The notes beneath the pieces are model-generated. The model was not told where the DNA came from and did not search any database. It saw nothing but the letters and a program-made list of their open reading frames with translations. Shown piece after piece: positions 15,304 through 18,697 of a DNA stretch of 27,568 nt. The stretch covers positions 1-27,568 of the forward strand of contig JBBQSO010000071.1 of assembly GCA_038213805.1 (NCBI GenBank). Reading direction: 5' to 3'. A program made the position numbers and the translations under genes. How positions within the stretch are numbered: the stretch's first letter is position 1; every line of letters starts with the position of its first letter. The stretch comes from Planctomycetota bacterium. Lineage in GTDB: Bacteria; Planctomycetota; UBA11346.

Positions 15304-18027
15304 TCACAGTCCCGCCAACGTCTCCCGCAGATTGCCCAGCTCGACGCGCTCCTTCGCCAGCAGCTCCCGGGTCTCCTCCACCTGCTGGGCCGGTGCACGC
15401 GCGATATAGTCGGCGTTGCCCAGGCGGCCCTCTTTGCCGGCGATGCTCTTCTCGGTGGCGGCGCTACGCTTGGCGAGCTGGTCCTTGAGCTTCGCGAGAT
15501 CGACCACCCCGGCGAGCGGCACGTGGATCTTGAGCTCGCCGACCACGGTGGTGACCGCGCCGGCCGGTTTGGCCGCGCCCGCGGCGATGACCAGGCCGCT
15601 GAGGTTGGCGCGGTCGATCAGGAACGCGCGCTCGCCATCCAGCGCCTGCGCCCGCGCCGCACCCGGCGTCGCGATGGTCGCCTCCAACGCCACGCCGTCG
15701 GCGAGGCTGACCAGGTTGCGCACGTTGCGGATGGCGCTGACCACCGCCTGCAGCTCGGCCATCGCGGGTGCCGCGTCGGCGACCTGCAGCGCCGCCACCG
15801 GCAGCGGCCAGGGCTGCAGCATCAGAAAGCGCCCGGGCTGCCAGGCCGCGCCGCCGGTCACCGTCTGCAAGGTCTGCCAGAGGTGCTCGGTGATGAACGG
15901 CATGCCCGGATGCAGCAAGCGCAGCACGCCATCGAAGCAGTGCGCGAGCACCGCGGTGGCGTTGGCCGCGGCGACGCCGCCGGCCTTGAACTGGTGCTTG
16001 GCCCATTCCAGGTACCAGTCGCAGAGCTCGTCGCGGAAGAAGCGGTAGGCGGTGTTGGCGTAGTCGTTGTAGCGGAAGCTTTCGAGCGCTGCGGTGCACT
16101 CCGCGACCGCGCCCTGCAGGCGGTCAAGGATCCAGCGCTCGGGAAGTCCCTGACCCGCAAGCGCGGCGACCGCCGCCGCGTCCGGCACCCCCGCCAGCGG
16201 CCGCTCCGCCAGGTTCATCAGCAGGAACCGCCCCGCATTCCACACCTTGTTGGCGAAGTTGCGCCCGGTCTCGAACTTCACCGGGCTGAGCTTGAGGTCC
16301 TGCCCTTCGGTGGTCATGTCGAGCAGCGTGTAGCGCACCGCGTCGGCGCCGTAGCCCGCGCACTGGTAGTCCTTGCCCAGGTAGTTCTGCGTGCCGCCCT
16401 CGATCATGATGATGGGGTCGATGCCGTTGCCCTTCGACTTCGACATCTTCTCGCCGCGCTCGTCGTTGACCGTGCCATGGATGTAGACGTCGCTGAACGG
16501 CCGCGTGTCGAGCGCGAACAGCGAGGTCATGACCATGCGCGCGACCCAGAAGAAGATGATGCCGCGGTCGGTGACCAGGGTCGAGGTCGGGAAGTAGCGC
16601 GCGAGCTCGGGCGTCTGCTCGGGCCAGCCCAGCGTCGAGTACGGCCACAGCGCCGACGAGAACCAGGTGTCGAGGACATCGGGGTCCTGCGTCAGCTTTG
16701 CCGACCCGCAGTGCGCGCAGGCGCTGGGGTCCGCCATGCCGACGGTGACCTGTGCGCAGTCCGCACAGTGCCACGCGGGAATGCGGTGGCCCCACCAGAT
16801 CTGGCGCGAGATGCACCAGTCGCGGACGTTGTCCAACCACTGCTCGTAGACCTTGCCCCAGCGTTCCGGGTGGAAGTGCAGCCGCCCCTCGCGCGTCTCC
16901 TTGACGGCGCGCTCCGCGAGCGGCGCCATCTTCACGAACCACTGTTCGGTGACCATCGGCTCGATCGGTTCGCCGGAGCGCTCGCTGTGGCCGACCGCGT
17001 GGGTGATCTCGGTGCGGCCCTGCAGCACGCCGCTCTGTTCGAAGGCGATGAGCAGCGCCTTGCGGCAGGCGAAGCGGTCCTGCCCGGCGTAGCCGGTGGC
17101 CTCTGCGGTCATGGTGCCGTCGAAGCCGATGACGCGCACCAGCGGCAGTTTGTGGCGCTTGCCGACCTCGTAGTCGTTGGGGTCGTGCGCGGGCGTGATC
17201 TTGACCGCGCCGGTGCCCTTCTCGGGATCGGCATGCTCATCGCCGACGATCGGGATCTGCCGCCCGACGATGGGCAGGGTGACGGTGCGGCCGATCAGCG
17301 CCTGGTAGCGCGGATCGGCGGGATTCACCGCGACCGCGGTGTCGCCGAAGAAGGTCTCGGGCCGCGTGGTCTCGACATCGATGTGGCCGCTGCCGTCGCT
17401 GAGCGGATAGCGCAGCTTCCACAGGAAGCCGGGCTTGTCCTTCATGTCGACCTCGTCGTCCGACAGCGCCGTCTTCAGCACCGGCGACCAGTTCACCATG
17501 CGCGTGCCGCGGTAGATCAGGCCCTTCTCGAACAGCGCGACGAACATCGTGCGCACCGCGCGCGACAGCCCCTCGTCCATGGTGAAGCGTTCGCGCGACC
17601 AGTCGCACGATGAGCCGAGCTTGCGCAGCTGGTTGACGATCTGCCCGCCCGACTGCTCCTTCCACGCCCACACCCGCGCCAGGAACTCGTCGCGCGGCGT
17701 GCTCTCCTTGCGCCTGCCCTCTTTCTCCAGCAGCTTCGCGACCACCGCCTCGGTGGCGATGCCGGCGTGGTCGGTGCCCGGCTGCCACAGGGTGTCGTGG
17801 CCCTGCATCCGCCGCCAGCGGATCAGGGTGTCCTGCAGGGTGTTGTTGAGCGCATGCCCCATGTGCAGCACGCCGGTGACGTTGGGCGGCGGGATGGCGA
17901 TGGTGTAGCTGGGCAGTCCCGCGCGCTTGCCCGCGCCGGCCTTGAAGCAGCCGCCTTTTTCCCAGCGCTCGTAGACCTCAGGCTCGACGGTCTTGGCTTC
18001 GTAGGACTTGGGGAGCTCGAGGGTCAT
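15304..18027 (-). CDS. valS: Valine--tRNA ligase
   Basis: 'PPPNVTGVLHMGHA', 'GTDHAGIATE', 'TTRPET', 'GTGAVKITPAHDPNDY', 'DWCISRQIWWGHRIP', 'DVLDTWFSS', KMSKS, C-terminal coiled coil. Confidence 0.98.
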   Translation of the reverse strand: MTLELPKSYEAKTVEPEVYERWEKGGCFKAGAGKRAGLPSYTIAIPPPNVTGVLHMGHALNNTLQDTLIRWRRMQGHDTLWQPGTDHAGIATEAVVAKLLEKEGRRKESTPRDEFLARVWAWKEQSGGQIVNQLRKLGSSCDWSRERFTMDEGLSRAVRTMFVALFEKGLIYRGTRMVNWSPVLKTALSDDEVDMKDKPGFLWKLRYPLSDGSGHIDVETTRPETFFGDTAVAVNPADPRYQALIGRTVTLPIVGRQIPIVGDEHADPEKGTGAVKITPAHDPNDYEVGKRHKLPLVRVIGFDGTMTAEATGYAGQDRFACRKALLIAFEQSGVLQGRTEITHAVGHSERSGEPIEPMVTEQWFVKMAPLAERAVKETREGRLHFHPERWGKVYEQWLDNVRDWCISRQIWWGHRIPAWHCADCAQVTVGMADPSACAHCGSAKLTQDPDVLDTWFSSALWPYSTLGWPEQTPELARYFPTSTLVTDRGIIFFWVARMVMTSLFALDTRPFSDVYIHGTVNDERGEKMSKSKGNGIDPIIMIEGGTQNYLGKDYQCAGYGADAVRYTLLDMTTEGQDLKLSPVKFETGRNFANKVWNAGRFLLMNLAERPLAGVPDAAAVAALAGQGLPERWILDRLQGAVAECTAALESFRYNDYANTAYRFFRDELCDWYLEWAKHQFKAGGVAAANATAVLAHCFDGVLRLLHPGMPFITEHLWQTLQTVTGGAAWQPGRFLMLQPWPLPVAALQVADAAPAMAELQAVVSAIRNVRNLVSLADGVALEATIATPGAARAQALDGERAFLIDRANLSGLVIAAGAAKPAGAVTTVVGELKIHVPLAGVVDLAKLKDQLAKRSAATEKSIAGKEGRLGNADYIARAPAQQVEETRELLAKERVELGNLRETLAGL

Positions 18028-18067
18028 GTGAGGTTCCTGGGAGGCGCTGGGATCACTGGAAACGCCG

Positions 18068-18112
18068 CGGGGCGGCCCGCAGGCCGCCCCGTCCGGGAAC
18101 GCGTGACCTGCG
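18068..18112 (-). promoter_or_regulatory. Candidate attenuator helices in the valS leader
   Basis: Perfect 10-bp hairpin CGGGGCGGCC-TGCG-GGCCGCCCCG (18068-18091); competing segment CGCAGGTC (18105-18112) is complementary to GGCCTGCG (18078-18085). Confidence 0.6.
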
Positions 18113-18118
18113 TCGGGC

Positions 18119-18160
18119 TCAGCGGGGTGCGACCACGACGGGTACGGGCTGCGGAGTCAT
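18119..18160 (-). CDS. Val-rich leader peptide MTPQPVPVVVAPR upstream of valS
   Basis: ATG ACT CCG CAG CCC GTA CCC GTC GTG GTC GCA CCC CGC TGA; 4 Val codons, 3 of them consecutive; ends 91 nt before the valS ATG. Confidence 0.7.
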   Translation of the reverse strand: MTPQPVPVVVAPR

Positions 18161-18167
18161 CGGCGGC

Positions 18168-18195
18168 ACGCTAGCGGGCTGCGCGACACGTTCAA
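18168..18195 (-). promoter_or_regulatory. Putative sigma70-type promoter giving a leaderless leader-peptide/valS transcript
   Basis: TTGAAC, 16 nt, TAGCGT, 7 nt, then the ATG of the leader peptide. Confidence 0.5.
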
Positions 18196-18206
18196 GGCGA
18201 CCAGTC

Positions 18207-18614
18207 CTACTGTCCAAAGACCCCGACCTTGCCCTTGCTGTTGCGGCGTACCCAGGCGGCGGGAGAGGTGACCAACACCGTGCCGGTCTTGGGCACGGGC
18301 TCACCGACGATGCGGTCGTCGTAGGGCAGGCTCAGCACGGTGCCGATCAGGTCCGCGGGGCCGTCGAGCACCTCGACGTCGACCACGTACCAGACGAAGG
18401 GCTCGGTGGTGAAATCGTTCGCGGCGTTGTCGAAGCTCTTGACCACCTTGAGGCGCATGGCGCGTTGGTCGTGCTCGGCCTCGGCGCGGGTCCAGACCGT
18501 ATTCTGCGGACGTCCCTGGCCGCAGCCGCTGAGGAGCAGGGCCAGGGCCGCCAGCGCGACGACGGTGATGGAGGGGATGCAGGCACCGGGCGCCGGGCAG
18601 GTCATGGCGGGCAT
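18207..18614 (-). CDS. Hypothetical lipoprotein
   Basis: Hydrophobic stretch ending in lipobox LSGC; start uncertain (18614, 18605 or 18647). Confidence 0.7.
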   Translation of the reverse strand: MPAMTCPAPGACIPSITVVALAALALLLSGCGQGRPQNTVWTRAEAEHDQRAMRLKVVKSFDNAANDFTTEPFVWYVVDVEVLDGPADLIGTVLSLPYDDRIVGEPVPKTGTVLVTSPAAWVRRNSKGKVGVFGQ

Positions 18615-18697
18615 ATCGGTGCAGTCTTTTCTTGTCTTGGCCTCCATCCAGCCATAAGTGCCCTGCCCCCGCTGCGGGGGCCTTCCCGGAGCCCCCG

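Follow-up and report, generated by a model that had tools for sequence, protein, structure and literature searches.

The gene valS, coding for valyl-tRNA synthetase, lies on the minus strand of the window (the whole stretch of DNA analysed here, 27,568 nucleotides in length), and is separated from an upstream ORF of 146 codons by a spacer of 179 bases. What this spacer contributes to the expression of valS is the question that the locus raises. The initial annotation had placed in it a candidate leaderless leader-peptide attenuator, in which the position of a ribosome on a short Val-rich ORF would choose between an antiterminator and a hairpin, together with a further helix that would mask the SD-like motif of valS. 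All of the sequence elements named there (the promoter-like pair, the ORF, the competitor, the hairpin and its flank) were found letter for letter at their minus-strand places, and are listed here with the neighbouring genes.

15304-18027, minus strand: valS, valyl-tRNA synthetase, 907 aa, the gene that would be regulated; Pfam domains tRNA-synt_1, Anticodon_1 and Val_tRNA-synt_C
18035-18038, minus strand: SD-like AGGA of valS, 7 nt before its ATG
18058-18067, minus strand: putative terminator tail CGGCGTTTCC, with T at 18062-18060
18068-18091, minus strand: putative terminator hairpin, 10 perfect pairs with the loop TGCG, -25.3 kcal/mol
18078-18085, minus strand: predicted 3' strand of the antiterminator, GGCCTGCG, comprising the final four bases of the 5' arm and the terminator loop
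18105-18112, minus strand: predicted 5' strand of the antiterminator, CGCAGGTC, starting 6 nt after the leader stop codon, from the nascent fold
18119-18160, minus strand: leader ORF of 13 codons and a stop, MTPQPVPVVVAPR, with Val codons at 18145-18143 and 18139-18131
18168-18173, minus strand: -10-like hexamer TAGCGT, ending 7 nt before the leader start codon
18190-18195, minus strand: -35-like hexamer TTGAAC, in relatives mostly CTTGCC
18207-18647, minus strand: 146-aa ORF upstream of the leader, without any Pfam match

From these parts, their conservation, their constant spacing and the covariation of the antiterminator, we propose that the spacer probably contains a ribosome-mediated transcription attenuator of valS, which would sense Val-tRNA and be carried on a leaderless transcript. 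The window belongs to a MAG of 180 contigs (90% complete, 5.5 Mb, 69% G+C). The same 48 genomes make up the comparison set at family, order and class scope, all of them MAGs and none closed (30-1010 contigs). MAGs are thus far the sole source of this lineage, which has the level of a class.

The promoter-like pair and the leader ORF

The -35-like and -10-like hexamers are separated by 16 nt, and no SD-like motif was found in the 7 nt between TAGCGT and the ATG at 18160. Since the -10-like hexamer ends so close to the ATG, the transcript is predicted to begin at or 1 nt before this codon, and from promoter spacing alone we infer that the leader transcript is leaderless. Among the 19 leaders collected from the window's genome and its relatives (see below), 17 have a TTG-type hexamer at an equal distance from the start codon, as read by eye from the leader sequences. 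A -10 hexamer of the TAnnnT type precedes the start codon in 14 of 20 candidates, that being the number that passed the TAnnnT filter, and the spacing of the promoter-like pair to the start codon (ATG or GTG) is fixed in most leaders. A generic scan for sigma-70 promoter and terminator consensus sequences called no site at the leader.

The 13 codons of the window's leader include four for Val, namely GTA, GTC, GTG and GTC. Across the 19 leader peptides Val accounts for 81 of the 214 residues after the start codon (38%), the flanking residues being variable, and it is encoded by GTC 44 times, GTG 15 times, GTA 14 times and GTT 8 times. With each of the four Val codons in use, the changes fall mostly in third positions, as in coding sequence, and we count as support for the attenuator that the leader ORFs appear to be under selection for Val at the level of the peptide. 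In the window's own valS not one of the 64 Val codons is GTA or GTT, as against 22 of 81 in the leaders; the leaders are therefore enriched in rare Val codons. Occupancy of the leader ORF by ribosomes is predicted, its translation likewise being a prediction from the sequence. All RNA runs contained just 4-5% of the sampled words; the four that were compared with the locus, available as contigs, matched conserved coding parts of valS from other organisms and not the leader, a result that is neutral for the attenuator.

Occurrence before valS in related genomes

The N-terminus of valS was located in 44 of the 48 genomes, two of them cut at a contig end, which leaves 42 readable upstream regions. 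The search was for a 9-15-codon ORF in which three or more of five consecutive residues are Val, followed by a hairpin 25-32 nt past the stop codon. A Val-rich ORF upstream of orthologous valS genes, as the initial annotation would lead one to expect, is indeed present: 17 of the 42 regions contain the Val-run ORF and the hairpin, and two more are weaker, although the resulting 19 leaders are related sequences, so that such counts overstate the independent support. In the 17, a run of three to six Val is followed by a hairpin of the GGGGCGGCC-loop-GGCCGCCCC type and by a short, T-containing tail resembling CGTTT. The two weaker cases, G022 and G051, have a like layout with three and one Val codons, respectively, all GTA. 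The leader of G003 starts with GTG. In that genome the interval between hairpin and valS (L028 1228-1500) is occupied by about 250 nt of tandem repeats, in which an 8-nt unit occurs many times and is succeeded by a 7-nt unit.

Other loci have kept less. G004 retains the promoter-like pair and the hairpin together with an ORF that has no Val run, while G001 and G059 retain -10-like remnants only, without start codon or hairpin, and these promoter remnants look like decay of the element. Nothing was seen at 21 of the 42 loci. Since the element is missing from 23 of the 42 related valS loci, it is dispensable. In G061 (L126), which has no leader, the spacer before valS is filled by a long inverted repeat with arms of some 30 nt. 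By genus, the element occurs in g1 (9 of 11), g5, g10, g11, g12 and g32, and in weaker form in g13 and g33; g2 (0 of 7), g3 (0 of 5), g4, g6, g7, g9, g14, g15 and g34 lack it. The mean column identity of the leaders is 58%. A quick tree of valS has leader-bearing genomes on each side of its deepest split; this suggests that the element is old and was lost several times, and at least four changes are forced by well-supported branches. The valS proteins themselves differ in one respect: in about 10 relatives the match to the window's protein is interrupted near residue 101-106 with no stop there, which suggests an insertion of some 25-30 residues in these relatives compared with the window's protein.

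A covariance model built from the 19 leaders scored 61-100 bits on these same training sequences and gave nothing else above 34 bits in the 48 genomes, so that no member was found there beyond the training set. The next matches, at 27-34 bits, were the G004 remnant and ordinary gene-end terminators. There is one copy per genome, always before valS, as far as can be judged from 19 leaders and a model trained on the same sequences. The detector that had found the leaders was also applied to other valS loci. It found the element before valS in none of 63 distinct other Planctomycetota genomes (60 of 134 valS matches from outside the family plus five others, two of which overlapped), and in none of 79 other bacterial valS loci, mostly Alphaproteobacteria, among the matches listed.

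These data bear on the possibility that the parts have come together by chance, with a hairpin that only terminates the 146-aa gene upstream and a short ORF that is left untranslated. The end of that gene lies 115 nt before the hairpin, and the same type of stem serves gene-end terminators elsewhere in the lineage, as would be expected on this reading. Against it, the Val run, the gap of 25-32 nt and the fixed promoter-like pair recur across genera in leaders that otherwise differ, and the element was absent from both sets of control loci. Moreover, loci with a leader do not share one upstream gene, and that of G009 has a separate terminator of its own before the promoter; we count the independence of the leader from the upstream gene as supporting the attenuator. 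Such ORFs are also rare genome-wide. Both strands of the 5.5-Mb genome contain 35,910 ATG-initiated ORFs of 6-30 codons, of which 43 have at least four Val in five residues; only five of these 43 are followed, 15-40 nt past the stop, by a hairpin of at least 8 bp, and the stem reaches 10 bp only at valS, the other four having 8 bp. The combination of a Val-rich ORF and a hairpin at valS is beyond chance, and we regard a fortuitous assembly of unrelated parts as very unlikely. A C-terminal motif of the 146-aa ORF was also seen before valS of many relatives, whether the leader is present or absent.

Elsewhere in the window's genome no convincing case of another amino-acid-run leader with a hairpin was found. 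A Leu run on C45 and a Trp run on C111 were considered as leaders and rejected, because each falls within a very long ORF on the other strand, and no leader of this kind was found before ilvB. Comparison of the window with Rfam gave no match at the gathering score. At E-values up to 10, the region 17950-18300 gave only a 17-bit chance match to PtaRNA1, on the other strand. A T-box riboswitch was considered and rejected, there being no match to the T-box covariance model.

Alternative helices and proposed termination before valS

The attenuator that we propose would operate as follows. Transcription would start at or beside the ATG of the 13-codon ORF and give a leaderless mRNA. With Val-tRNA plentiful, the ribosome would reach the stop codon and cover approximately the first 11 nt past it; the masked post-stop strand could then not pair, the 10-bp GC hairpin with its CGTTT-type tail would form, and RNA polymerase would terminate before valS. 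With Val-tRNA scarce, the ribosome would stall in the Val run, 1-5 codons earlier, and leave the post-stop strand free, whereupon the antiterminator would form, the terminator would be blocked and valS would be transcribed. Four steps of this scheme are predictions: where transcription starts, that the ORF is translated, that RNA polymerase terminates at the hairpin, and that the leader responds to valine.

The two strands of the putative antiterminator, CGCAGGTC and GGCCTGCG, can form seven Watson-Crick pairs and one G-U pair, and the duplex in the window has an energy of -15.2 kcal/mol against a shuffle mean of -10.4. When the nascent RNA is folded from the stop codon as far as the last base of the loop, nearly all leaders form a helix between a strand that begins 2-10 nt past the stop and the 3' part of the 5' arm together with the loop. 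Loop and partner covary: UGCG is accompanied by CGCA, UGCC by GGCA, and UUCC by GGAA or GGGA, while loops starting with A pair with U. Because MAFFT left the antiterminator strand out of register, cognate and non-cognate combinations of post-stop strand and arm plus loop were compared without an alignment. In 15 clade representatives, cognate pairs had -18.9 and non-cognate pairs -16.4 kcal/mol (20,000 permutations, p = 1e-4); the initial annotation had proposed a test for covarying helices in related genomes. Taken individually, 10 of the 19 leaders have a loop pairing that beats shuffles (z of -1.5 or lower). Six (G007, G005, G002, G006, G019 and G057) seem to be paired to the core of the arm in another register. 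Counted against the antiterminator is that strong alternative pairings arise easily in GC-rich RNA.

Folding under a ribosome footprint, which the initial annotation had also suggested, gave results in the expected direction. In a model where the ribosome covers 14 nt, counted from the A-site codon's first base, the competitor has a mean energy of -19.8 kcal/mol with the ribosome at the first Val codon of the run and -17.8 at the last, against -9.0 once it stands at the stop (19 leaders), part of this last drop being due merely to the shorter RNA. A conserved 1:2 (anti-antiterminator) helix was not found in the 19 leaders, in which pairing between the ORF and the post-stop strand ranges from 0 to 18 nt; such a helix is not universal among attenuators. 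Since there is no conserved 1:2 helix, the design appears to be one of two helices, and untranslated RNA may default to read-through, unlike in the classical trp model.

The GGCGGCC core of the hairpin is invariant in all 19 leaders and the tail has a nearly invariant T; hairpin and CGTTT-type tail together are conserved in 19 of 19, the window's tail having only three T, and the hairpin energies range from -13 to -31 kcal/mol. In all 19 the full-leader MFE structure keeps the terminator. Since the terminator wins at equilibrium throughout, any switch must be kinetic, as in known attenuators. The fold of the window's whole leader is not unusually stable (z = -1.27).

The initial annotation had taken the weakness of the U-tract as a ground for translational or Rho-dependent control. 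This argument loses its force here, where short (C)GTTT tails are usual after GC-rich hairpins. In the window's genome, GTTT occurs within 12 nt after 9.9% of GC-rich hairpins of at least 10 bp compared with 1.5% of random places (6.6-fold), and 98 of 312 GC-rich hairpins of the same genome (G000) have at least four T in the 10-nt tail, compared with 10% at random places. Gene-end terminators in the lineage often combine a stem resembling GGGGCGGCC with a short tail, (C)GTCGTT or CGTTT, in place of a long T-tract. In the leaders of G048 and G050 the hairpin is followed by seven T. Since short (C)GTTT tails are the local norm, termination of transcription at the hairpin is probably a better reading than a mask over the SD motif.

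Such a mask was the second element of the initial annotation, and would make the device a translational attenuator, the leader ORF acting through an anti-SD helix in the manner of the leaderless polycysteine ORFs of mycobacteria. In the window, the 8-nt stretch before the hairpin, GTTCCCGG (18100-18093), differs by one mismatch from the complement of CCAGGAAC (18040-18033), which lies in the SD region, and AGGA-like motifs precede valS in many relatives. The mycobacterial leaderless Cys ORFs, in the portion of the preprint that describes their action, likewise work on an RBS-sequestering structure (10.1101/834739). However, the helix is not conserved: it is confined to the window's genome (G000) and its two closest relatives, G010 and G003, where it is no better than in shuffled sequences (the fraction of shuffles as good being 0.08-0.22), and in the other 16 leaders the pairing is at shuffle level, bar G057 (fraction 0.05). 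The conserved hairpin excludes the SD motif, and a T-containing tail is conserved after its stem. Between the end of the hairpin and valS lie 22-54 nt in 17 of the 19 leaders, but 147 nt in G050 and 295 nt in G003; the last two distances fit termination, not SD masking. We therefore consider translational control through SD masking quite improbable.

It is more improbable still that the short ORF specifies a functional hydrophobic micro-peptide, or that Rho-dependent polarity acts in place of the hairpin: the leader peptide is hydrophobic, and weak T-tracts in GC-rich bacteria have sometimes been linked to factor-dependent termination, but the peptides vary from 9 to 15 residues with only the Val run conserved, one of them stopping immediately past five Val, as would not be expected of a folded or membrane peptide, and neither the invariant hairpin nor the covarying competitor is needed for Rho polarity.

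Of the initial annotation, then, the attenuator core stands, namely a leaderless leader peptide on which the position of the ribosome would choose between antiterminator and hairpin, and it draws support from conservation, geometry and covariation; the anti-SD helix and the argument from the weak U-tract do not. Perhaps, in addition, this transcription attenuator is an ancient, class-wide, leaderless two-helix device, the first leader-peptide attenuator to be described for valS and for the Planctomycetota, with repression exerted by the terminating ribosome, with valS on by default when the leader is untranslated (there being no 1:2 helix), and with GTA and GTT codons that tune it to a rare isoacceptor of tRNA-Val. 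We offer this wider proposal tentatively and regard it, taken as a whole, as rather unlikely.

Comparison with known attenuators

Leader-peptide attenuation is textbook biology for the Proteobacteria and Actinobacteria. Full-text literature searches yielded no description of a leader peptide for valS, and none of a specific attenuator in Planctomycetota. What is new here is the gene, the amino acid, the phylum and the unusually compact form; the principle is not new, and the valS leader overturns nothing. Its design would fit into approximately 100 nt, with a leaderless start, 9-15 codons and two helices. The 19 diverged versions with covarying loops, together with the 23 related loci without the element, offer a natural test set for the minimal length of an attenuator. 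The Planctomycetes appear, in the part of Korolev et al. (2016) that concerns them, only as a statistical peak of leader genes (PMC4833913).

In Corynebacterium glutamicum, the ilvBNC operon offers a parallel in the sensing of Val. A passage of PMC11857589, citing Morbach et al., describes a 15-residue leader, IlvL, with three consecutive Val and a transcription start site one nucleotide before the start codon; replacement of Val by Ala abolishes valine-dependent expression, and antiterminator and terminator hairpins are present (PMC11857589). As described in that passage, ilvBNC shares with the valS leader a short leader peptide with a Val run and, as predicted for the latter, a near-leaderless start and the pair of antiterminator and terminator hairpins. 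It differs in that the regulated genes are those of branched-chain synthesis and not a synthetase, and in that Ile and Leu codons are sensed as well. Further, it is modelled with three hairpins, belongs to an Actinobacterium and has no sequence relation to the valS leader, which is without a conserved third helix.

Attenuators on synthetase genes are closer in function. The relevant section of Seliverstov et al. (2005) predicts that in Streptomyces leuS and trpS have attenuators of the classical kind, and cites that of pheST (PMC1262725), while Naville and Gautheret (2010), in the corresponding part of their paper, report His leaders on hisS paralogues in bacilli and state that, at the time, Proteobacteria and Actinobacteria were the only groups with known leader peptides (PMC2965389). 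In a term search valS was not mentioned in the text of PMC1262725 or PMC2965389. So far as these sections describe them, the attenuators of gamma-proteobacterial pheST, Streptomyces leuS and trpS, and hisS of bacilli resemble the valS leader in having an ORF with cognate codons and, as predicted for valS, an antiterminator and a terminator. They differ from it in amino acid, gene and phylum, the valS leader being apparently leaderless and only 9-15 codons long. By analogy, its regulatory logic would match that of the known synthetase-gene attenuators, as these are outlined in PMC1262725.

The leaderless polycysteine ORFs of mycobacteria, in the portion of the preprint devoted to them, sense Cys by ribosome stalling and act on translation (10.1101/834739). 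They have in common with the valS leader, on that description, a short ORF with a run of a single amino acid, which in the valS leader is predicted to be leaderless as well. In the valS leader, unlike in these ORFs as there described, it is the terminator-type hairpin and the T-containing tail that are conserved, and not the masking of an SD motif.

In the Firmicutes, valS is controlled by a T-box, which senses uncharged tRNA-Val and ends in antitermination. The gene is the same in the two cases and the signal would be so too, but the T-box binds the tRNA directly, whereas in the attenuator proposed here sensing would be carried out by the ribosome. If the valS leader is real, the same solution as in the known leader-peptide attenuators has arisen or persisted in a deep uncultured lineage, for a gene on which Firmicutes use the T-box.
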